This document shows, piece by piece, positions 11,509 to 22,983 of a stretch of DNA of 42,468 nt (positions are counted from its first letter, which is position 1; every line of letters starts with the position of its first letter). The position numbers and the translations under genes are program-made. This DNA is from Patescibacteria group bacterium (GTDB lineage Bacteria > Patescibacteriota > Microgenomatia > UBA8517), in contig JAOAEL010000002.1 of assembly GCA_026416845.1 (NCBI GenBank), positions 1 to 42,468 on the forward strand, written 5' to 3'. Under the pieces are notes generated by a model. It had not been told where the DNA came from, ran no database searches, and was given only the letters and a program-made list of their open reading frames with translations.

Positions 11509-12162
11509 ATGACAAGCACAAAAACAAAAACCACAAAAGCACAAAACACGCATAAAACTCCTAATCCGCTTGAGGCTATAAAAGAAATTGGTAAGGATAC
11601 TGTTAATCAAATGAGACAGGAAATTAGTAAATTGCCTAATGAACTGTTTGAAAATCTATTTGGCAATTATTATCCTTACAAAAATACTTCACGCAGATAT
11701 TCAGGCGAAATAGCGCCAGGAGAAACAATAGAAATAAACGACATTTTATCAGGCAAAATCGAGCAAGTACAAAAAATGCACGAAAGTATTGCTTTGGAGC
11801 AAAGACTGTTGCAAGAAGAAAAAATAAGAACAGAAAAAAAATCTCAAGAGCTAAAAGCACAACTTAACGCTATTCAACAAGAACTTTTAACGGCTGTTAA
11901 AAGCACACAAGGTTTGGCGGAAGAAGTGCAAATTGCGGCTATGACATCTGCAGTAAATCCAGGAATATATCATATAGTATTTTTTGAAAAACTTTTGGCG
12001 TTTATAAAATCATTCAGAACCAAAATACAAGAAGCTCAAACTTGGCTATATGCTGTAAACAAGCGATCTCAAAAAAAGAATATGTGGGGCATAAACTATA
12101 AAAAGCACGGAGCTAAATATCTTTTGTCTTCCGAACATTACTTGCAAAGATCAGCTGGATAA
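11509..12162 (+). CDS. Conserved hypothetical coiled-coil protein (DUF5660-like)
   Basis: Coiled-coil middle; C-terminal PGIYHIVFFEKL...W...KKHGAKYLLSSEHYLQRSAG recalled as typical of this CPR family. Confidence 0.5.
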   Translation: MTSTKTKTTKAQNTHKTPNPLEAIKEIGKDTVNQMRQEISKLPNELFENLFGNYYPYKNTSRRYSGEIAPGETIEINDILSGKIEQVQKMHESIALEQRLLQEEKIRTEKKSQELKAQLNAIQQELLTAVKSTQGLAEEVQIAAMTSAVNPGIYHIVFFEKLLAFIKSFRTKIQEAQTWLYAVNKRSQKKNMWGINYKKHGAKYLLSSEHYLQRSAG

Positions 12163-12183
12163 AAATTGCCGTTATAAATTTAA

Positions 12184-13533
12184 ATGGATAAAAAATTATT
12201 AGAGCCGTTTTTAGAAATACTAAAAATCCCAAGTATTTCAACATTGGCTAAACACAAAAGTGACATGCAAAAAGCAAGAAAGTATTTACTATATCTTTTT
12301 GATTCTTTAGGGTTTAAAACAGAAACACTAAAATGCAAATCTCACGATGCTATATTTGCATCTTTAGAAGTGGATAGTAAACTGCCTACAATATTAATTT
12401 ATGGTCATTATGATGTGCAACCCGCAGATCCTTTAGATGAATGGGGAACGCCACCGTTTGAGCCAACTATTATAGACAACAAAGTCTACGCTCGCGGAGC
12501 AACCGACAACAAAGGTCAATTCATGGCACACATAATGGCGCTTAAAAAACTTATGTTTCAAAAAATTGATTTGACCGCAAATATCAAATTTATCATAGAA
12601 GGCGAAGAAGAAATTGGATCAATAAGTGTTACAGATCTAACAAAAAAATACTCAAAAGCTTTGTTTAAGTGCGATTTTCTTGTTGTTTCTGATACAGAAA
12701 TGTATAAAGAGGGATTGCCCTCTATAGATACAAGCTTGCGCGGACTTTTGTATACAGAAATTACTCTCCAAACCGCGAAGCAAGATTTACACTCAGGACA
12801 ATTTGGTGGCATAGCAGAAAATCCTATAAACATGCTCGCTTATTTAATTACCAAAATAAAAGATAAAAATGGCAAAATTTTAATACCAGGTTTTTACGAA
12901 AATGTTTGTTCTCCCTCAGAAACAGAACTAAAAAATTACGAAAAATTAAAAACAAAAGAAAAAGATTTAATAAACGAAGGACAAATGTATTGCCTTGGAG
13001 GCGGAGAAAAAGAATACAGTCTAAATGAAAGAAGATGGAGCAGGCCTACTTGTGATGTTAATGGAATATTTGGAGGATATACTCAAGAGGGAAGCAAAAC
13101 AATAATCCCTTCAAAAGCAAGCGCTAAAATAAGCTTCAGGCTCGTGCCAAATCAGGATCCAAAGGACATTTACCAAAAATTTGTGAAACATGTCAAAAAT
13201 ATAGTACCAAAAAATATTAAATTGAAAGTCAAAGAGCATGCTTCAGCGCTTCCTTACAAAGCGCCCATTAATCATCCAGTATACGAAATAATGAAAAAGA
13301 GCCTAAAAAAAGTCTGGGGAAAAGAACCAGTATATACTGGAGTGGGAGGATCTATAGGCTTTGTTCCGGTGCTTGCTCAAACTTTAAATGTCCCGTGCCT
13401 CATGGTAGGCTTTGGACTTCCGGATGACAATTTGCATGCACCAAACGAACGATTTAATCTAACAAACTACTTTAACGCAATAGACACAATGGTAGAGTTT
13501 TACAAAAACCTTTCACAACTAAAACATAATTAA
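12184..13533 (+). CDS. M20/M25/M40 metallo-dipeptidase
   Basis: YGHYDVQP, ARGATDNKG, EGEEEIGS, DLHSG, GGSIG, HAPNE. Confidence 0.92.
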   Translation: MDKKLLEPFLEILKIPSISTLAKHKSDMQKARKYLLYLFDSLGFKTETLKCKSHDAIFASLEVDSKLPTILIYGHYDVQPADPLDEWGTPPFEPTIIDNKVYARGATDNKGQFMAHIMALKKLMFQKIDLTANIKFIIEGEEEIGSISVTDLTKKYSKALFKCDFLVVSDTEMYKEGLPSIDTSLRGLLYTEITLQTAKQDLHSGQFGGIAENPINMLAYLITKIKDKNGKILIPGFYENVCSPSETELKNYEKLKTKEKDLINEGQMYCLGGGEKEYSLNERRWSRPTCDVNGIFGGYTQEGSKTIIPSKASAKISFRLVPNQDPKDIYQKFVKHVKNIVPKNIKLKVKEHASALPYKAPINHPVYEIMKKSLKKVWGKEPVYTGVGGSIGFVPVLAQTLNVPCLMVGFGLPDDNLHAPNERFNLTNYFNAIDTMVEFYKNLSQLKHN

Positions 13534-13582
13534 TAAAATATTAAGGGCTACAAATACAATCTGTTATTATTTAAATAAAAAA

Positions 13583-14584
13583 ATGTTTGATAAAGCAGTT
13601 CAAAACATCATCAAAAACTGTCTTAGACTTTCAACAAAAGATCGCTTTGTTATTGTTTCCGATATAGCAAGACAAGACATCGGAAAATCAATTTATGAAA
13701 AAGCAAAAGAGGTATGCGAAACAAAAATATTTTTCATAGAAGAATTTACAAAACGGCCTGCAAAAGAATTTCCTACTGCTTTTGAGAAAGATATAACTAA
13801 ATTCATGCCAACCGCTTCTTTGTATGCAGCTACAGGCCAGGAAGGAGAATTGCCGCTCTTTAGATCAAAGCTCATTGCTCTATTAACTAAAAATCTTAAT
13901 TGCAGGCATGCCCACATGATTGGTGTAGATGAAAAAATTATGGAAACAGGAATGAGCATGGACTACTCGCTCATATACAAAGCGTCGCATAAGCTCTATG
14001 AAATATTAAAAAACGCAACAGAAATTGAAGTAAAAGATCCACATGGCACAAGTTTGAAAGCAAATTTCTCAAAAGAAATTAAATGGAAAGCAGATGATGG
14101 AGTGCCTCTTGATAATGGGCGTTGGTGCAATCTGCCAGCCGGAGAGGTATTTACTTGTCCTGTGTCGGTAAACGGTCAAATAGTCGCATGGGAGCTGGGG
14201 GATTATTTCTCTGAAAAATATGGAGTATTGAAAAATCCAATTATGATTTACATCAAAAACTCGTTTATAACAAATGTAAAAAGCAAAAACAAAAAACTTA
14301 AAGAGGAATTTGAGTCTTATGTGAAAAAGTATTCAAATGGCAATAGAGTGGGAGAGTTTGCTATAGGATGTCTTATGGGACTTGAGAAGTTGATAGGCAA
14401 TTTGCTTCAGGACGAAAAATTCCCCGGAGTTCACTTAGCTTTTGGACATCCGTATCCCGAAATGACAGGAGTACAAGATTGGAATTGTGAAAGTCACGTA
14501 GATGTCATACCTCTTAACGTATCTGCATTTGTTGACGGCAAAGAGATTTTAAAGAATAGAAAATTTACCATAGATTTAACTTGA
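13583..14584 (+). CDS. M29 (thermophilic metalloprotease family) aminopeptidase
   Basis: NLPAGEVFTCP, GEFAIG, DEKFPGVHLAFG, HVD. Confidence 0.88.
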   Translation: MFDKAVQNIIKNCLRLSTKDRFVIVSDIARQDIGKSIYEKAKEVCETKIFFIEEFTKRPAKEFPTAFEKDITKFMPTASLYAATGQEGELPLFRSKLIALLTKNLNCRHAHMIGVDEKIMETGMSMDYSLIYKASHKLYEILKNATEIEVKDPHGTSLKANFSKEIKWKADDGVPLDNGRWCNLPAGEVFTCPVSVNGQIVAWELGDYFSEKYGVLKNPIMIYIKNSFITNVKSKNKKLKEEFESYVKKYSNGNRVGEFAIGCLMGLEKLIGNLLQDEKFPGVHLAFGHPYPEMTGVQDWNCESHVDVIPLNVSAFVDGKEILKNRKFTIDLT

Positions 14585-14598
14585 TTATATTGCATAAT

Positions 14599-14627
14599 TT
14601 GACAAAAAAAAGTTCACAATGTAAAAT
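14599..14627 (+). promoter_or_regulatory. Sigma70-type promoter
   Basis: TTGACA (14599-14604), 17 nt, TAAAAT (14622-14627). Confidence 0.8.
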
Positions 14628-14636
14628 TTTAGCTTA

Positions 14637-14690
14637 ATGGAAGTACTTTTTTCTCTCAGCGCTATTTCCTTCCTCATTTGGGGAGGTTAA
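14637..14690 (+). CDS. Putative attenuator leader peptide MEVLFSLSAISFLIWGG (17 aa)
   Basis: ATG 9 nt after the -10 box; TAA (14688-90) lies inside the 1:2 hairpin just before segment 2. Confidence 0.55.
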   Translation: MEVLFSLSAISFLIWGG

Positions 14691-14756
14691 TGCGTGCTGA
14701 GAGGAAGTAAAAAACAAAACTAAAAAAGCAACCTCTCAGAAACGAGAGGTTTTTTG
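14644..14756 (+). promoter_or_regulatory. Four-segment transcription attenuator (1:2 / 2:3 / 3:4)
   Basis: CTCTCAGC (14653-60) pairs GCTGAGAG (14696-703); CTGAGAGG (14697-704) pairs CCTCTCAG (14731-38); AACCTCTC (14729-36) pairs GAGAGGTT (14743-50) followed by a T tract. Confidence 0.75.
14729..14756 (+). terminator. Intrinsic terminator (attenuator 3:4 hairpin) about 10 nt upstream of ATG 14766
   Basis: 8-bp stem, AGAAAC loop, T tract. Confidence 0.8.
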
Positions 14757-14765
14757 TTTTTAAAA

Positions 14766-17624
14766 ATGGAAACAAAAATACCAATTGCAGATCGAATAAC
14801 ATACGAAGCATGGGGGACAGAAGCTAATCCTCACAGTCCTTTATGGGGTATTGAAATTTTAAAGAAAAAAGGCGAAGGAATGTCTGGATTAATAATAAAA
14901 CCCGAAGAATTAAGCAAATTAAAAAATTTAGAAAGAAATTCAACACTTGAAACTTTAGCTACTCGATGGGCAACCGAATCGGTTAATCAACCATTAGATG
15001 GAAAAAAATGGGCATCATACGCCACTTCAGGAAGTGAAACAAACGGAAAGGAATTTTTGCAACTTTTGGCTTTAACAAAAGAACTTCATAAATACCACCC
15101 AAACGATACAGCAGGCATATATTTCATAGATACGGCAAGTCACAGCATGAGACCTCAATTTGAAACTGAAATAATGATGTATGCTGCTACAACAGGACTC
15201 TCTGCAGAAGAAATAAGAGAAGCATACTTCAGTTTATTTAAAGTTGACCTTAAATATATTGATAATTTTGCCAATAGAATTTCAACATCTGAAGAGCAAA
15301 GACAAAGAATCAATTTAAAATGGGCAGAAAGAGCCATACAACTTGATGTACCCGCAGATGCCATATTACTTCCTGAAAAAGAGAAATATATAGAATTCTG
15401 CCGAAAAGTGGGGATTTCAGAAGAAATAACCACTGCAATAGAAAAAGCTTTCGAATTTATAAAATCTAGAGATGATATCCCTAAAAGCTTAGGATCATTA
15501 AGATGTGCAATATTTACAGAAGTTTCTAACCTTATTATCAAAAAACTAGGCTTTCAATACCCGATCATAGCAGTACCATTTGATGAAGCTGCTATAAAAA
15601 CAGGATGGGGACAACTAACTATGAAAGAAATTAGAAGATTTTCTGCAGAAACATTTATTGATAGAGTTGCATACTATAATGTCTTGGAACCAGAAACAGG
15701 AATAGAAACGCCATTATACAACACTGACGAGGAAAATGAAAAAAAGAGGAAAGCGGATCGCAACCAAGAAACCAAAAATTCAATCCAATCATCTCTATCA
15801 AACTCACGCTATGATCATCTGACTTATGAAGCAATTATGAAACATGGCCATTTTAGCGGAATGGGATACTATCACTTTCTTCTAACAAACAGCATAGGGT
15901 CAATGGCTTTTGTGCTTGATAATTACGAAGCAGGAGGTCCACATGCACGCATAATAAGAGCAGCAATAGAAGGCAGATTTCAAAGCAAGGTTATTATGGT
16001 CGGTTATCCTCGCGGTTGGGTTAGGATTGCATCTTTTGTGGGAGATGAAAACTCTACATATGGAGCATCACCCCCAATTGAACTTTTAGCATCTGAAATT
16101 TTCAAAGACCCAAACGGCATTGGCAAAATAACTCAATACATAACTTTACTAAATCAAGGCATCGGGGATAATATGACAATTGCACTTGATACATTGGCAG
16201 AAGGTAGCCAATTATATATAATTCCAGACAACAGAAGATTTGCTACAAGCAAAATAAATACTCCGTTCTTGTTTGAAACTGATTTTGAAAAAGCGCTAGA
16301 AATATTAAACGTACTAAACGAATTCACAAAAACACCCAATTTACAAACATATTTACAAATTGCACAACTCGGTCTAGCAGAAATTGACTCAGAAATTGAA
16401 AAACTTGCGACTTTAAACAAAGAGTTGGCAGAAATAACCACCTGCTTAGAGGAGAAAAGCCAAGAATTTTTAGATAGATACAAAGTTCAAATTACAAGAT
16501 ATTTCACAAATAGACAAATTGCTATATCAAGAGCACTAAATCTAATGGGTAAATCATTCTTAGATGATGAAAATGGCCAAAGAACATTGCCCGTTGTGAT
16601 AGAAACACCCCAAGAAATACAAGAACATCAAACACAAAAAAATGCAAAGCAAGCTCAAATAATTTCAGATTGGATGTATTTGAAAGCTAGAAAAATAGTT
16701 GAATCCTCCAGCAACAGACAAAATATAAATGAAAAATCACCCTTATACTTAACATATCAGTCTGTGACCAAACTGATAGAAATTATTTCAACATTTCAAA
16801 AAGCAGAATCTGCAAAAAAATGTGCAAATTCTTTGATAAAAGCATGGGAAAACAATCACAGCAAACTAGCTGAAGCGATCAATTGTTTAAACAGTGACCA
16901 AAATACACAAGATCAAGCAGTAAATAGTTTCATTGCAATGTTCAAAGAATTGATTGCACAAGGACATACATTAGATTTGCACAACATTTTAAGTGACCCA
17001 GCAACTCTACTTCAAATCTTGCAATCTACAACTGAATTCATCAACACAACCAAGAAAAAATTAATAATTGAATATGGACTAGTTGAAGAAAAAGGCGAAA
17101 TCAAGAAAGGCGAGTTGGAGAAAACATTAAAATTGGCATCTGAAATTCGCAGAACAATTGATGCATTCTGCTCCACAAATTACGAAAGTGAACTAGCTGA
17201 TAAAATATCAGCTATTGGCCAAAATTGCACAATATCTAATTTACATGAACTCTGTTTAAGCTTCTGCATGGAAAAAGCCTCAGAAATCTCATCCATAGTA
17301 CGTGGCAAAACCGGAGACGAAAACAAACCAAGATTTGCAAATTCAAGAAATGCTTTGGATTACGCAGAAAGATTTGCACAAACTTATCAAAGAATCCAAA
17401 ACTTTAAATCTACAGTAAGGAGAATCTGGACTGAACTCAACACAAACGATAATTCACTAGAAGAATACCTAAATGCCTATCGCCAACACTTAGAAGAATT
17501 AGATCCTCTTATAGCAAAACGTAACGAAACTCAATCTAGCATAGCTAAACTTAAAGAAGAAGCTGAAAAAATAATAATGAAAACAAGAGAAAAACTCGCC
17601 AAAACTGTTATAATCATAAAATAA
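14766..17624 (+). CDS. Large hypothetical protein (952 aa): N-terminal alpha/beta region, C-terminal helical/coiled-coil region
   Basis: Long ORF; ATG 14766 preferred over TTG 14754, which lies in the terminator T tract; no TM segment and no family recognised. Confidence 0.85.
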   Translation: METKIPIADRITYEAWGTEANPHSPLWGIEILKKKGEGMSGLIIKPEELSKLKNLERNSTLETLATRWATESVNQPLDGKKWASYATSGSETNGKEFLQLLALTKELHKYHPNDTAGIYFIDTASHSMRPQFETEIMMYAATTGLSAEEIREAYFSLFKVDLKYIDNFANRISTSEEQRQRINLKWAERAIQLDVPADAILLPEKEKYIEFCRKVGISEEITTAIEKAFEFIKSRDDIPKSLGSLRCAIFTEVSNLIIKKLGFQYPIIAVPFDEAAIKTGWGQLTMKEIRRFSAETFIDRVAYYNVLEPETGIETPLYNTDEENEKKRKADRNQETKNSIQSSLSNSRYDHLTYEAIMKHGHFSGMGYYHFLLTNSIGSMAFVLDNYEAGGPHARIIRAAIEGRFQSKVIMVGYPRGWVRIASFVGDENSTYGASPPIELLASEIFKDPNGIGKITQYITLLNQGIGDNMTIALDTLAEGSQLYIIPDNRRFATSKINTPFLFETDFEKALEILNVLNEFTKTPNLQTYLQIAQLGLAEIDSEIEKLATLNKELAEITTCLEEKSQEFLDRYKVQITRYFTNRQIAISRALNLMGKSFLDDENGQRTLPVVIETPQEIQEHQTQKNAKQAQIISDWMYLKARKIVESSSNRQNINEKSPLYLTYQSVTKLIEIISTFQKAESAKKCANSLIKAWENNHSKLAEAINCLNSDQNTQDQAVNSFIAMFKELIAQGHTLDLHNILSDPATLLQILQSTTEFINTTKKKLIIEYGLVEEKGEIKKGELEKTLKLASEIRRTIDAFCSTNYESELADKISAIGQNCTISNLHELCLSFCMEKASEISSIVRGKTGDENKPRFANSRNALDYAERFAQTYQRIQNFKSTVRRIWTELNTNDNSLEEYLNAYRQHLEELDPLIAKRNETQSSIAKLKEEAEKIIMKTREKLAKTVIIIK

Positions 17625-17625
17625 A

Positions 17626-18621
17626 ATGAACTACAACTTACTCAAAAAACTCTGTTTTGCACATGCTGTTACAGGAGATACTGACGAAATAAAAACAGTG
17701 CTCATAGAAGAACTCAAATCAAGGGGGATAGCTTTTTATAAAAACGGCTATGGCACGATTATTTTTGGAAACACAAAAAATCCACAAAAACTTATTGCCA
17801 GTCATATAGACGAAGTGGGATTTCAAATCACAAAAATTGAAGAAAACGGAAAAGTGAGAATTTTACCGGTGGGTTGGATATTCGCCAATAGACTCGACCA
17901 TGCGATTGTGTATGCACAAACGCAAAAAGGAAAAGTAACTGGAGTAATCTTGCATGAAGATGAACTGAAAACAGAAAATCTGACAAGTTTCAATTCCCTA
18001 TATCTTGATGTGGGCGTTGACACAAAAGACGAAGTCCAGAAATTAGGAATACAAGAGGGGCAAACCGGAAGTTACAAAAAAGAATTCATAGAAACCGAAC
18101 AAAATATTATAGCTTCAAGTTTGGATAACAAAGTCTCTCAATTTGCTGTATTTGAAATATTAGACCAAAATCCGGAATTCCTGGAGGAAAATATGTTTGC
18201 TTTTATCACTGATGAAGAAATGCAAGATCAAAGCGCAAATGGTATATGCGATTCATATAAGCCCGATCTTGCCATCGTGCTTGACTACTGTCCAATCCAT
18301 CAAAAAGTGGGAAATGCTGAAAGTTTGGGTGAAAGTGGCAAAGGACCGCTTGTGATGTATCGTGGAGGAGCGCACATAATACATGAAGATATAAGAAATT
18401 TTTTTGAAACAAAAATTAATCTGCCTTTTCAAAAAGGATTTTTATCCGCTGATACAGTTCATCAACTAGAACCTTTTAACTTCCAAAATAATGGACATAC
18501 AAAAGCCGTAAACGTATGCGTTCCGGCATTTGGATATCATGGCGCAGGGTACAGTTTAAGGAAAAAAGATATTTACGATTTTTGTAAGTTTCTGAAAGAA
18601 GTTATAAATCAAAAATTCTAA
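17626..18621 (+). CDS. M42 family aminopeptidase
   Basis: ASHIDEVG, SLDNK, TDEE, C-terminal GYH; starts 1 nt after the upstream stop. Confidence 0.85.
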   Translation: MNYNLLKKLCFAHAVTGDTDEIKTVLIEELKSRGIAFYKNGYGTIIFGNTKNPQKLIASHIDEVGFQITKIEENGKVRILPVGWIFANRLDHAIVYAQTQKGKVTGVILHEDELKTENLTSFNSLYLDVGVDTKDEVQKLGIQEGQTGSYKKEFIETEQNIIASSLDNKVSQFAVFEILDQNPEFLEENMFAFITDEEMQDQSANGICDSYKPDLAIVLDYCPIHQKVGNAESLGESGKGPLVMYRGGAHIIHEDIRNFFETKINLPFQKGFLSADTVHQLEPFNFQNNGHTKAVNVCVPAFGYHGAGYSLRKKDIYDFCKFLKEVINQKF

Positions 18622-18781: not shown

Positions 18782-19567
18782 ATGTCAGAAAGGAAAATAT
18801 GTAATTTGTGCCCTTTGGAGAAAAGGTGCTCAAAAACGCTGGAAATAAATAGATTAGAAATCTCAAAATTCTTGGACGCTTTCGAGAATGCTTATCCTAA
18901 TCAACTTGAAATTGCAAGCTTGGAAAACAACCGAATATTAACATATACTACCTCGTCATCTGACAAGATAAATAGAAGAAAGAGAATAGAAAAATGGCTT
19001 TTAAATGGAAATTTTACAAATGATGGTTTTGCATATTATCTAGAATTTCTCTTGGCTCAATTAATAAAACAAATATTAAAAGAAAAAAACTTCCACGATA
19101 TACAAGTTGAATTAACTCCAACAGAGCTTGATTGTGTACACAAAGGAAATGGCAATGGCGGAGATGTGATTGTCATACAAGGAAAATATCCATTGGTTAT
19201 TATAGATATAACTATTGGAAGTCTTTCAAAAAAACAAAATCTTGGCATACATTACCCAACTGGATCCCCAGTCATTCAATTCTCAATTAAACAAAATATT
19301 GAAGATGAAATTTGTTATAGAACAGCTCCAGAATTGATAAACAATTTTTCTATACAATCTATAAACCAAGGTTTATATCTTCTAAATGGAGGAGCATTTT
19401 ACCTGCCAAACAAACATTTAAAGTTACTCAAGCGTTTATTTAAAGAACCTATTCTCACAGCAGCAGAGAAAACATTACAAAAAATACAAACTATCAGTCC
19501 CAAATCTGCAACATGTCAAGCAATAATAAGAAGTCATAGCTTACTAACTTTGATTTTTGAATCCTGA
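18782..19567 (+). CDS. Hypothetical protein, possible PD-(D/E)XK nuclease fold
   Basis: Helix with E (YLEFLLAQ), GGDVIV, IIDIT; N-terminal CxxC...C. Confidence 0.4.
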   Translation: MSERKICNLCPLEKRCSKTLEINRLEISKFLDAFENAYPNQLEIASLENNRILTYTTSSSDKINRRKRIEKWLLNGNFTNDGFAYYLEFLLAQLIKQILKEKNFHDIQVELTPTELDCVHKGNGNGGDVIVIQGKYPLVIIDITIGSLSKKQNLGIHYPTGSPVIQFSIKQNIEDEICYRTAPELINNFSIQSINQGLYLLNGGAFYLPNKHLKLLKRLFKEPILTAAEKTLQKIQTISPKSATCQAIIRSHSLLTLIFES

Positions 19568-20610: not shown

Positions 20611-22983
20611 ATGCAAAAATTTATAAACTGGGCTTGCAATTTTTCGATATTAATAACGCTATTTATAACTGGAGCATGCGTATTAATCATAGAAGTTGTG
20701 GCTGTTAGATTATTATCTCCATACTTTGGAAACACTATATATTCTTATTCAAGCATATTAAGCGTTATTCTGGCGGCGATTTCTATTGGTTATTATTACG
20801 GAGGCAAAATAGCAGATAAAACAAAAGATGAATCATTGTTTTATAAAATAATAACAGCATCAGGAGTTGCAACAGGCTCGCTTTTTCTAGTTTCGTTTTT
20901 CATCCTAGATAAAATAGCCAATAACTTCTCGATCACAACAGGCCCATTGATTTCCTCTATAATTCTTTTTTCAATTCCAGCGTTTCTGCTGGGACTTTTG
21001 TCTCCATTTGGCGTTACTTTGGAAAATCACAAAAAGAAACACACCGGCGTAGGAACAACCTCTGGAAAAGTATTTTTTGTTTCTACTTTGGGAAGCATAT
21101 CCGGAAGTCTTCTGGCCGGATATTTTCTGATACCATTTTTTGGTGTTTCGAATATATTTGTAGGAGTTTCTCTGGCGCTAATTTTAATTGGCACAATTGG
21201 CAACTTAATAGTAAAAAAAAACACAATTAAAACCAAAAACATAGTTTTTGGGATATTTTTCTTTAGCACTCTTCTTGCATGCTCAACCCTCCAGGAAGAA
21301 AATTTTGTTTACTCCAAAGATGGCATTTATGAAAAAATAAAAATCATAGATTCAATCAATCATGAAAAAAGACCAGTAAGATACATGATTCAAGATAGAT
21401 CGTGGTCAAGCGGAATTTATTTAGACACAAAAGAATTGCTTTTTGAGTACACAAAATTTTACGATATAAATAAAATCATAGGACTAACACCTAAAAATGC
21501 TTTGGTAATAGGATCAGGAGCATATTCAATACCAAAAGCAATTCTGGCAGAATACCCAAATATAGAATACATAGACACTGTAGACATAGAACCAATATTA
21601 GAAGATATCGCGATAAAATACTTTGATTTCAAACCTAATTCCAAAATAAGAAGCCACACAAAAGACGGTCGAGTGTTTGTAAAAAATTCAGAAAACAAAT
21701 ACGATTACATTTTTATAGATGTTTATCAGACTTTTTATTCCATCCCAGCGCATTTCACCACCAAAGAATTTTTTCATGAAATCAAAAGAAAATTAAACAA
21801 CAATGGGATTGTGATAATGAATATAATTGCTTCAATTGATGAAAGTGAAGGAGACAAACTTCCAAAAGGGATATTAAAAACCTTTGCAAGCGAATTTGAA
21901 AACTCGCATCTTTTTTTTGTTGAAGGCAAGAACATAAAAACAGTGCAAAATCTTATAGTAATTGGCATTAACTCGCCAAAAGAAATAGACATAAAAGCGC
22001 CAATGCGATTTGTAAATAATCTTGAAGAAAAACACATTCCAATTGCAAAGCTTGAATTGTCAAACTATCAAATATTTACAGACAATCATGCTCCAATAGA
22101 ATATTTAAGCGTTAAGATGTACGAAAAAACAATGAAACAATTTAAATTTAATCAAAAAAATCAAGAATCAATTTTATTAAAGCAAATTAGTGATCAAGTC
22201 GCGTTTGGACCAAGATACGTAGGTTCTGAAGGACAATCAAAAATACACCAATACTTGATAAATAATCTTCGTGAAAAAGAAGTAAAAATTATTGAACAAG
22301 ATTTTGTTTTTACCGGCAAAAATCAAGATTACAAAGGGAAAAATATCATTGCTCAAATAAATCCTCAAAACGAAAGGAGAATTTTAATAGGCAGTCACTT
22401 TGACACGCTTAAAATATCAAAAGATACAGGCAAACCAATGATTGGAGCAAATAATGGAGCAAGTGGGACAGCGGTCTTGCTGGCAATTGTTGAAGAATTA
22501 AAAAACAAAGAAAACAAACTGCCAATTGGAGTAGACATAGTATTTTTTGACGCGGAAGAAGGAGATCCTGACATACCACCATGGGAAAATGGTTGGATGC
22601 CCAAAGGATCAAAACACTTTGCGGCTAACGTAAACACAATTTATCCCCAAAAACATCCTGAGCATGCAATAATTATAGATGTGGTATGTGGCAAAAACCC
22701 AAAGTATTTTTATGAAATCAATTCCGCAAAAAATGCAAACGCCCAAATGAAAAAATTCTGGCAAATAGGGAAAGCAAAAATGCCTAGTTCGTTTATTCAA
22801 ACTGAAAAATATGCTGTTATAGATGATCACACTGCATTAATAGAAATCAAAATACCAACATTTTTAGTAATAGATATGGATTACAAATATCTTCATAGCT
22901 CAAATGACACCATTGAAAAATGCGATGGAAAAAGTCTTGCGAACATGAAAGATATATTAATAGAGTATATTTACTCTATTTGA
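20611..22983 (+). CDS. Fused membrane domain + spermidine-synthase-like domain + C-terminal M28 peptidase/glutaminyl-cyclase-like domain
   Basis: TM region (IIEVVAVRLLSPYFGNTIY; GSISGSLLAGYFLIP); ALVIGSGAYS, VDIEP, DGRVF, YDYIFIDVY; then ILIGSHFDT, GANNGASG, FFDAEE, DDH, LHSSNDT. Confidence 0.85.
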   Translation: MQKFINWACNFSILITLFITGACVLIIEVVAVRLLSPYFGNTIYSYSSILSVILAAISIGYYYGGKIADKTKDESLFYKIITASGVATGSLFLVSFFILDKIANNFSITTGPLISSIILFSIPAFLLGLLSPFGVTLENHKKKHTGVGTTSGKVFFVSTLGSISGSLLAGYFLIPFFGVSNIFVGVSLALILIGTIGNLIVKKNTIKTKNIVFGIFFFSTLLACSTLQEENFVYSKDGIYEKIKIIDSINHEKRPVRYMIQDRSWSSGIYLDTKELLFEYTKFYDINKIIGLTPKNALVIGSGAYSIPKAILAEYPNIEYIDTVDIEPILEDIAIKYFDFKPNSKIRSHTKDGRVFVKNSENKYDYIFIDVYQTFYSIPAHFTTKEFFHEIKRKLNNNGIVIMNIIASIDESEGDKLPKGILKTFASEFENSHLFFVEGKNIKTVQNLIVIGINSPKEIDIKAPMRFVNNLEEKHIPIAKLELSNYQIFTDNHAPIEYLSVKMYEKTMKQFKFNQKNQESILLKQISDQVAFGPRYVGSEGQSKIHQYLINNLREKEVKIIEQDFVFTGKNQDYKGKNIIAQINPQNERRILIGSHFDTLKISKDTGKPMIGANNGASGTAVLLAIVEELKNKENKLPIGVDIVFFDAEEGDPDIPPWENGWMPKGSKHFAANVNTIYPQKHPEHAIIIDVVCGKNPKYFYEINSAKNANAQMKKFWQIGKAKMPSSFIQTEKYAVIDDHTALIEIKIPTFLVIDMDYKYLHSSNDTIEKCDGKSLANMKDILIEYIYSI

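Follow-up and report, generated by a model that had tools for sequence, protein, structure and literature searches.

A rare protein family of CPR bacteria encoded with an M42 aminopeptidase behind a predicted leader-peptide attenuator

BshC (YllA; PDB 4wbd; Pfam PF10079/PF24850) is the putative cysteine-adding enzyme of bacillithiol synthesis, and its Rossmann fold is of the HUP class, as are those of the class I aminoacyl-tRNA synthetases (aaRSs) and the ATP-PPase domain of GMP synthetase. The NAGGN osmoprotectant trio, which is made up of an AsnO-type HUP amidotransferase, Ngg, and an M42 peptidase (TIGR03106), shows that an M42-family peptidase can be encoded together with an amide-forming enzyme of the HUP class; to our knowledge, no synthetase-like partner has been described for the characterized TET-type M42 aminopeptidases. 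Bacteria of the candidate phyla radiation (CPR) lack most amino-acid biosynthesis and depend on scavenged peptides, and their sensing of amino-acid shortage and response to it are largely uncharted. BshC is described as consisting of a Rossmann core with CP1 and CP2 insertions and a C-terminal coiled-coil, and its activity is said never to have been reconstituted (PMC4360819, which cites VanDuinen 2015). Here we describe a two-gene locus in a 42,468-nt stretch of DNA (the window; positions 1 to 42,468 of contig JAOAEL010000002.1, assembly GCA_026416845.1) from a Patescibacteria group bacterium with a genome of 1.08 Mb and 33.9% G+C. The product of the first open reading frame (ORF1) represents a CPR protein family that is both new and rare and whose predicted fold belongs to a class already known, with a conserved partner, the M42 aminopeptidase encoded by ORF2, and a conserved predicted attenuator. 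Literature searches returned nothing.

The gene pair and the ORF1 family

The coding features of the locus are as follows.

14766-17624, + strand: ORF1, 952 amino acids (aa) counted from the ATG
14766..16325, + strand: ORF1 N-terminal domain (aa 1-520), alpha/beta, with a predicted BshC/class I aaRS-like (HUP) fold from AlphaFold2 and Foldseek
16326..17624, + strand: ORF1 C-terminal half (aa 521-952), a predicted long helical bundle or coiled-coil stalk, fast-evolving, from DSSP of the AlphaFold2 model
17626-18621, + strand: ORF2, an M42 (TET-type) aminopeptidase of 331 aa with PF05343 and all metal ligands, whose start codon lies 1 nt past the ORF1 stop

The two genes are separated by a one-base spacer (TAA-A-ATG, 17622-17628), just as it had been read in a first-pass annotation of this DNA, in which the locus was described as an attenuator-controlled operon of an orphan protein and an intact M42 aminopeptidase. 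The peptidase is indeed intact, because ORF2 matched PF05343 (Peptidase_M42) at 3.6e-39 and retains all of the metal and catalytic positions (H60, D166, E197/E198, D220, and H305) when aligned to the solved M42 structures 4wwv and 2fvg. It is a regular member of the TET-type M42 aminopeptidases (PhTET2 1y0r, 4wwv) and differs from them in that its own subfamily, found in CPR bacteria, mostly has a synthetase-like gene in front of it. The leader, ORF1, and the M42 gene have no paralog elsewhere in the source genome.

In the window and at loci L001, L002, L003, L006, L013, L017, and L018, a gene of the ORF1 family precedes an M42 ortholog at a distance of 1-35 nt, which makes 8/10 of the M42-subfamily loci examined, and this adjacency holds while the identity to ORF1 drops to about 17-22%. 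Among 61 related genomes, ORF1 and this type of M42 were found in the same two and were both absent from the other 59. The co-occurrence of the pair, a check of which was suggested in the first-pass annotation, extends far beyond the source genome, with one phyletic pattern for both genes; the genes are linked elsewhere, and the predicted fold is not that of a known unrelated family. When genome contigs were searched with the M42 protein, the sister genome, a Patescibacteria metagenome-assembled genome, was the only one returned. The M42 orthologs are better conserved than their partners (74, 70, and 62% vs. 41, 40, and 30% identity). The junctions of the eight loci (1-35 nt) have no evident Shine-Dalgarno sequence, terminator, or promoter. 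A perfect TATAAT is present at 17609-17614, within the end of ORF1 and 11 nt ahead of the M42 ATG; by its sequence it could be an internal promoter for a short-leader M42 mRNA, and it is not kept at the junctions of the other loci.

ORF1 matched no model of Pfam, NCBIfam, PHROGs, or PADLOC, and against Pfam ORF1 remained without a match at E <= 0.1, as did nine family members when the limit was relaxed to E <= 10. The designation of ORF1 as an orphan is correct in this respect, but about a dozen homologs exist, nearly all of which come from metagenomic CPR contigs. Four homologs with 37-41% identity to ORF1 were found in a search of 5.8 billion clustered proteins, and P0005 (30%), P0006, P0007, P0010, and P0011 came from phmmer run exhaustively on 1.84 billion representatives; none of these five has a Pfam domain. 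Further members were sought by anchoring on M42 orthologs and taking the large Pfam-less proteins encoded directly upstream, and at three more loci such a protein was assigned to the family by hhalign, namely in L013 (975 aa; probability 79%, E 1.6e-5), L017 (881 aa; probability 98.5%, E 3.9e-15), and L018 (760 aa; probability 99.9%, E 4.3e-34). L018 belongs to a complete Dojkabacteria genome (AP024679.1), in which P0043 and P0048 are paralogous M42 proteins of this subfamily; the locus inspected was that of P0043.

Among species representatives the family is rare, being found in 2/61 relatives, 1/401 genomes of the class, and 1/401 genomes of the phylum. The class- and phylum-level genome searches with family profiles matched only the source genome, and a profile search of a word-indexed protein database returned just the already known close homologs. 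The tail differs in length among family members, as between those of 707 and 1209 aa. The 1209-aa homolog, P0006 of L007, has about 250 aa of additional N-terminal region.

A leader region conserved in nine loci

The leader features found upstream of ORF1 are as follows.

14599..14627, + strand: sigma-70-type promoter TTGACA-17-TAAAAT, 11/12 consensus positions
14637..14690, + strand: leader ORF of 17 codons, MEVLFSLSAISFLIWGG*, from ATG to stop, which begins 9 nt past the -10 box and is near-leaderless
14649..14707, + strand: hairpin P1, pairing of regions 1:2 (anti-antiterminator), in both the minimum-free-energy and the centroid structure of RNAfold, with an inner hairpin at 14669-14686
14696..14705, + strand: region 2, GCUGAGAGGA, with an alternative pairing to the terminator 5' arm at 14732-14741 (antiterminator)
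14730..14762, + strand: intrinsic terminator AACCUCUC-AGAAAC-GAGAGGUU followed by a U-tract, from a terminator scan, with the stem at 14730-14751, ending 4 nt before the ORF1 ATG

An attenuator had been proposed for this operon, and its parts were found: a promoter, a small ORF, the mutually exclusive helices 1:2, 2:3, and 3:4, and a U-tract terminator. All of the nine loci for which upstream DNA is available share this design, in which a promoter is followed by a small ORF rich in Ile, Leu, and Phe, by an alternative antiterminator pairing, and by a terminator directly next to the start codon. Among them are L006, L007, L013, L017, and L018, whose proteins have no more than 17-38% identity. 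TTGACA is invariant in four close homolog loci, and TTGACA, TTGACT, or TTGCAT together with TATAAT was found in L006, L007, L013, and L018. The leader ORF is kept in frame in L001-L003, including a 3-nt indel, and counterpart small ORFs rich in Ile, Leu, and Phe are found in L006, L007, L013, L017, and L018. The Ile+Leu fraction of the leader peptides is 0.357 vs. 0.208 in 631 background small ORFs of the same DNA (resampling P about 5e-5), and the peptides have no common conserved arrest motif.

The leader folds with an energy well below that of shuffled sequences (z = -6.3), and the 1:2 duplex has an energy of -25.3 kcal/mol vs. -15.7 +/- 3.0 in shuffles. The antiterminator was tested through the duplex energies of the competing arms, since equilibrium folding with a masked ribosome footprint rarely flipped to it, and the 2:3 duplex has an energy of -14.8 kcal/mol vs. 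-6.2 +/- 2.0 in shuffles (fraction 0.001). In nine of nine loci the 5' arm of the terminator has a pairing partner at about -11 to +15 nt from the leader stop, and this pairing outperforms at least 94% of shuffles, the shuffle fraction of the 2:3 pairing being <= 0.03 in 8/9 loci. The terminator stem is invariant across the four aligned loci, and on reading the sequences L001 retains the 2:3 helix through changed bases. Region 2 sits 6-15 nt past the leader stop codon and would therefore be covered by a terminating ribosome. The terminator leaves no room for a promoter ahead of the start codon, and ORF1 would therefore be expressible by read-through only.

This arrangement resembles the ilv, leu, and pheST attenuators in its short ORF rich in the sensed hydrophobic residues, in the exclusive helices 1:2, 2:3, and 3:4 with a U-tract terminator, and in the position of region 2 within the ribosome footprint of the leader stop. 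It differs from them in that a peptidase operon of CPR bacteria, not biosynthetic or synthetase genes, would be controlled, the leader ORF is near-leaderless, and the terminator abuts the start codon of the structural gene.

The terminator also bears on the start of ORF1. A TTG at 14754 is unlikely to be the start codon because it sits within the terminator U-tract. The start called for P0003 (L003:1040) lies inside the terminator, and that of P0002 (L002:7967-8001) was called at MYEAW; judging by sequence, both calls are probably wrong, since an in-frame ATG (MGGE[NH]I[IV]RRL...) is present just past the U-tract at both loci, as in the window. In L006 (157-300) the P0005 leader is preceded by another small ORF of hydrophobic content, MKQLTTSLITFLVIAFFVLIIVTMVYAEGG*, which has a terminator and an alternative pairing (GGAGGGAGG/CCUCCC) to itself, and this locus may have two attenuator-like units in tandem. 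Both small ORFs of L006 and the leader ORF of the window end in GG-stop.

Predicted fold and conserved residues of ORF1

AlphaFold2 models were made from a 10-sequence alignment for full-length ORF1 (pLDDT 86.4) and for residues 1-525 (N-domain; pLDDT 84.3, pTM 0.88). By DSSP of the model, nearly all of the strands are within residues 81-505, and residues 507-944 are almost purely helical. No transmembrane segment was found (maximum Kyte-Doolittle 19-residue hydropathy, 0.99), and there is no signal peptide. These results agree with the alpha/beta N-half, helical C-half, and lack of transmembrane segments given in the first-pass annotation. Identity to the nearer homologs is 38-56% in the N-half (aa 1-520) vs. 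17-30% in the C-half, and the C-terminus carries a short conserved hydrophobic beta-strand (947-951).

In a Foldseek search of the PDB, BshC (4wbd) ranked first for the full-length model (prob 0.98) and also for the N-domain (E 2e-4, prob 1.00, 491 aligned columns), with a TM score of only 0.31 and a root-mean-square deviation (rmsd) of 11 A in the latter case. Below 4wbd, the list for the N-domain consisted nearly entirely of ArgRS (prob about 0.6), TyrRS, and the ATP-PPase domain of GMP synthetase (prob <= 0.08). In BFVD, two giant-virus ArgRS entries were on top (prob 0.97 and 0.95) and CysRS was fourth. ArgRS, TyrRS, and CysRS thus dominate the match lists in two structure libraries, with TM scores of only 0.2-0.3. 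The models support a HUP/BshC/class I aaRS likeness of the N-half at the level of the fold alone. The earlier suggestion of a HUP- or BshC-like N-half stands as far as the fold is concerned, 4wbd being the first match, but the TM score of 0.31 is low and sequence comparison gives no signal.

Sequence and profile methods were negative throughout. PF10079 (BshC) had nothing in the source genome at E <= 10, while it was detected in 5 control genomes, 3 of them above the cut-off; the family profile matched neither a synthetase nor BshC among PDB sequences; an hhalign comparison of the family with an alignment of CPR ArgRS gave a probability of 0.2%; and the Pfam and NCBIfam aaRS models did not match ORF1. 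Neither HIGH nor KMSKS was found when the family alignments (A3 and A7) were read directly, the loop after strand 1 being T-S-x6-K-E and no KMSKS-like loop being conserved. The PP-loop motif SGGxDS is likewise not present after strand 1, where the residues are SGSETN in the window and SFCRAD or SFCRPD in distant members. The source genome has an ordinary class Ia synthetase set, and ORF1 is therefore not a replacement for one of these enzymes.

ORF1 is predicted to share with BshC the plan of a Rossmann (HUP) core with inserted peptides and a C-terminal helical coiled-coil, BshC being the top Foldseek match of both ORF1 models, and no canonical synthetase activity has been demonstrated for BshC either. 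ORF1 differs in having no sequence or profile similarity to BshC, nearly twice the length, a helical half of about 430 aa, and invariant motifs of its own, and in being paired with M42 in CPR bacteria in no bacillithiol context. With the class I aaRSs (ArgRS 2zue, 6ao8, and 4zaj; CysRS) it has a predicted similarity to the catalytic domain at the level of the fold, seen in two independent structure libraries at the low TM scores above, and the order of an N-terminal helical add-on, an alpha/beta core, and a helical C-terminal part; it differs in the lack of HIGH and KMSKS, the hhalign result above, and nothing pointing to tRNA binding. The invariant K95 of ORF1 would lie in the loop that holds the 'HIGH-loop lysine' in ArgRS, a possible resemblance.

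Fifteen residues are invariant in nine diverse members that are 17-57% identical, namely S88, K95, E96, Y119-F-I121, H126, P266, S364-G365, Y369, D385, Y387-E388, and P392. They are located at beta-strand ends and helix N-termini, and this placement of invariant Ser, Lys, Glu, His, and Asp points to a ligand pocket and probably to catalysis. The motifs WASYATSGS, GIYFIDTASH, HGHFSGMGYYH, and VLDNYEAGGPH, which had been singled out in the first reading, were all found in ORF1 and are the best-conserved blocks of the family.

Several other assignments were considered and rejected. A tubulin/FtsZ or P-loop GTPase identity (GSETNGKE/DTAS; PDB phmmer match to an Asgard tubulin at E 0.63) had no such fold matches, a PP-loop ATPase was rejected because SGGxDS is not retained in distant members, and SGNH/GDSL or alpha/beta-hydrolase nucleophile motifs had no fold matches. 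The resemblance of the C-terminal tail to AhlB/Hbl/YaxA pore-forming toxins, dynamin-like stalks, and MukB, and a weak profile match to PA28 (E 0.07), are generic helical-bundle similarities.

Possible roles of the pair and its neighborhood

Our tentative preference is to regard the locus as a peptide-salvage operon induced by Ile/Leu starvation, in which the peptidase would have an aaRS-like partner that may bind aminoacyl substrates or convert them chemically. In such an operon, transcription from the promoter at 14599-14627 would normally halt at the terminator (14730-14762), because a ribosome at the leader stop codon would mask region 2 and let the terminator form. A ribosome stalled sooner, on the Ile/Leu/Phe codons in region 1, would leave region 2 uncovered, whereupon it would pair with the 5' arm of the terminator and RNA polymerase would read through, and stalling at Ile/Leu (and possibly Phe) codons would signal a lack of charged tRNAs. 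ORF1 and M42 would then be translated off one mRNA, probably by termination-reinitiation, given the 1-nt gap. The M42 enzyme, a TET-type self-compartmentalizing aminopeptidase, would free N-terminal residues from oligopeptides, and ORF1 may be its dedicated partner, perhaps in physical association with it. The N-terminal domain of ORF1, with a putative polar pocket of S88, K95, E96, H126, S364, D385, and E388, most likely has a ligand of amino-acid, aminoacyl, or nucleotide type, on which it may carry out amide-bond chemistry or which it may sense, while the variable helical stalk would serve oligomerization or docking. We consider it unlikely, though worth stating, that ORF1 founds a catalytically active synthetase-derived family that works with a TET aminopeptidase in an undescribed salvage reaction induced by uncharged tRNA-Ile/Leu; for example, it may capture or activate hydrophobic amino acids freed by the peptidase, or unblock the substrates of the peptidase.

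Several observations weigh against the salvage operon. As for the leader, AT-rich DNA itself enriches I/L/F codons, which was controlled for by the background ORFs, though the three closest loci do not count as independent cases. With a stalled ribosome, equilibrium folding favors the terminator at most positions, so that the switch needs a kinetic argument, and in L001 the -10 box ends just 2 nt ahead of the leader ATG. As for the protein, the fold match is modest at this TM score and rmsd, the models rest on 10 sequences only, and sequence and profile methods give no link of the ORF1 family to BshC or the aaRSs; moreover, the absence of HIGH and KMSKS means that ATP-dependent catalysis is not assured. 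The pairing also has exceptions in both directions. M42 orthologs without the partner are present at L011/L012 and L016, where they are preceded by non-family proteins, and family members in L007 and L008 have no adjacent M42. The two proteins are therefore not obligate partners, and the ORF1-M42 partnership is strongly preferred.

At the exceptional loci L011 (3107-6962) and L016 (29-1129), the M42 orthologs are 58-60% identical. A 461-aa protein, M20, and a 203-aa helical protein are encoded upstream of M42 in L011 and a 366-aa helical protein in L016; the 461-aa, 203-aa, and 366-aa proteins are not ORF1-family members, and the helical proteins of the two loci have a common segment (...I-[DS]-GI-x-[NS]-AF-[ND]-L-[TA]-SIE-x-FITS...). 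In L007 (282-7719), a 431-aa protein of no recognized kind overlaps an AstE/AspA-like deacylase fragment downstream of P0006, and an Asparaginase_2 (isoaspartyl-peptidase type) is encoded on the opposite strand; the partner of P0006 would be a different amidohydrolase on the same theme.

The idea put foremost in the first-pass annotation was a biosynthetic pair, in which ORF1 would be an ATP-dependent amide ligase of the BshC/MshC type that makes a small compound of aminoacyl or peptidyl type, such as a store, an osmolyte, or a cofactor, and M42 would mature, edit, or degrade this compound. Amide and ester ligases that form adenylates have the BshC/class I aaRS fold, the residues of the putative polar pocket do not vary among the members compared, and the biosynthetic NAGGN trio (NCBIfam TIGR03106) includes an M42-family peptidase. 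However, ORF2 scored 41 bits against this model, whose cut-off is 398, and ORF1 has neither the PP-loop SGGxDS nor similarity to AsnB, nor is there a GNAT or ATP-grasp partner. No conserved acceptor-making genes (bshA/bshB analogues) are present near the pair in the loci examined, the genome itself not having been searched for bshA/bshB, and HIGH and KMSKS are absent. An Ile/Leu-codon attenuator implies induction by starvation, which suits the mobilization of amino acids, their catabolism or supply, better than the building of a store, and we regard a ligase pair as unlikely.

Somewhat less probable still is the scaffold that had been suggested to feed the peptidase. ORF1 would in this case be a catalytically dead, HisZ-like pseudo-enzyme with an amino acid as its ligand, and its stalk would be the means by which it gates or assembles the TET peptidase. 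The loss of the class I catalytic signatures with retention of a ligand-type pocket would fit such a protein, as would the 1-nt coupling, which suggests stoichiometric co-production, and the long variable helical tail, which is typical of docking and oligomerization modules. The fifteen invariant residues, with Ser, Lys, Glu, His, and Asp among them, nevertheless look catalytic rather than just ligand-binding, and the peptidase subfamily works partnerless in some lineages.

It is improbable that the two genes are unrelated neighbors, with ORF1 a fast-evolving structural or host-interaction protein merely co-transcribed with a housekeeping aminopeptidase. ORF1 does evolve much faster than M42 (41% vs. 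74% identity for the same genome pair), its tail yields only generic helical-bundle matches, and each gene is found without the other, but the adjacency persists at the lowest ORF1 identities, a single pattern of presence and absence covers both genes, and the N-domain is enzyme-like in a protein with no signal peptide or transmembrane segment. Least probable is a response to inhibitors, with the leader sensing stalling by an antibiotic or aaRS inhibitor, ORF1 a decoy or detoxifier, and the peptidase processing the compound: the aaRS-like fold, the fast evolution and patchy distribution of ORF1 (1/401 genomes of the class and of the phylum), and the short hydrophobic ORFs with terminator switches that control antibiotic-responsive genes (erm, ARE-ABCF) would fit it, but no defense or resistance model matched, the leader peptides lack a common arrest motif, and the neighborhood consists of housekeeping peptidases and trigger factor.

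This compact locus is a testable unit, since it combines a predicted attenuator whose codons would name the signal, a well-understood aminopeptidase, and an unnamed synthetase-fold protein with defined invariant residues. Should ORF1 be an enzyme, it would be a new branch of the BshC/class I synthetase fold class, in which the chemistry of BshC is itself unresolved; should it have a regulatory role, a self-compartmentalizing peptidase would be under the control of a protein derived from a synthetase. If ORF1 proves to be an active salvage enzyme, the locus would moreover provide the first case in CPR bacteria of a catabolic peptidase operon shown to be governed by a leader-peptide attenuator. 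Under either outcome the ORF1 family merits a name and a model in the domain libraries.

Around the pair, the following genes were identified.

12184-13533: M20 peptidase gene
13583-14584: M29-like (M29/NicX-like) gene
20611-22983: membrane-SpeE-M28 fusion

The pair is embedded in a cluster of peptidase genes in the order DUF5660, M20, M29/NicX-like (11509-14584), the pair, a 261-aa protein, and SpeE-M28. The 261-aa protein (18782-19567), encoded downstream of M42, has no Pfam, NCBIfam, PADLOC, or PHROGs family match. A 257-aa gene occupies the equivalent position in L002, and no equivalent follows M42 in L001 or L006. The 80-aa ORFs that follow the L006 and L007 genes were set aside because they are mutually unrelated. 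In the metagenomic contig L002 the order trigger factor, DUF5660, M20, M29, ORF1, M42, 257-aa gene, and SpeE-M28 is fully syntenic with the window.

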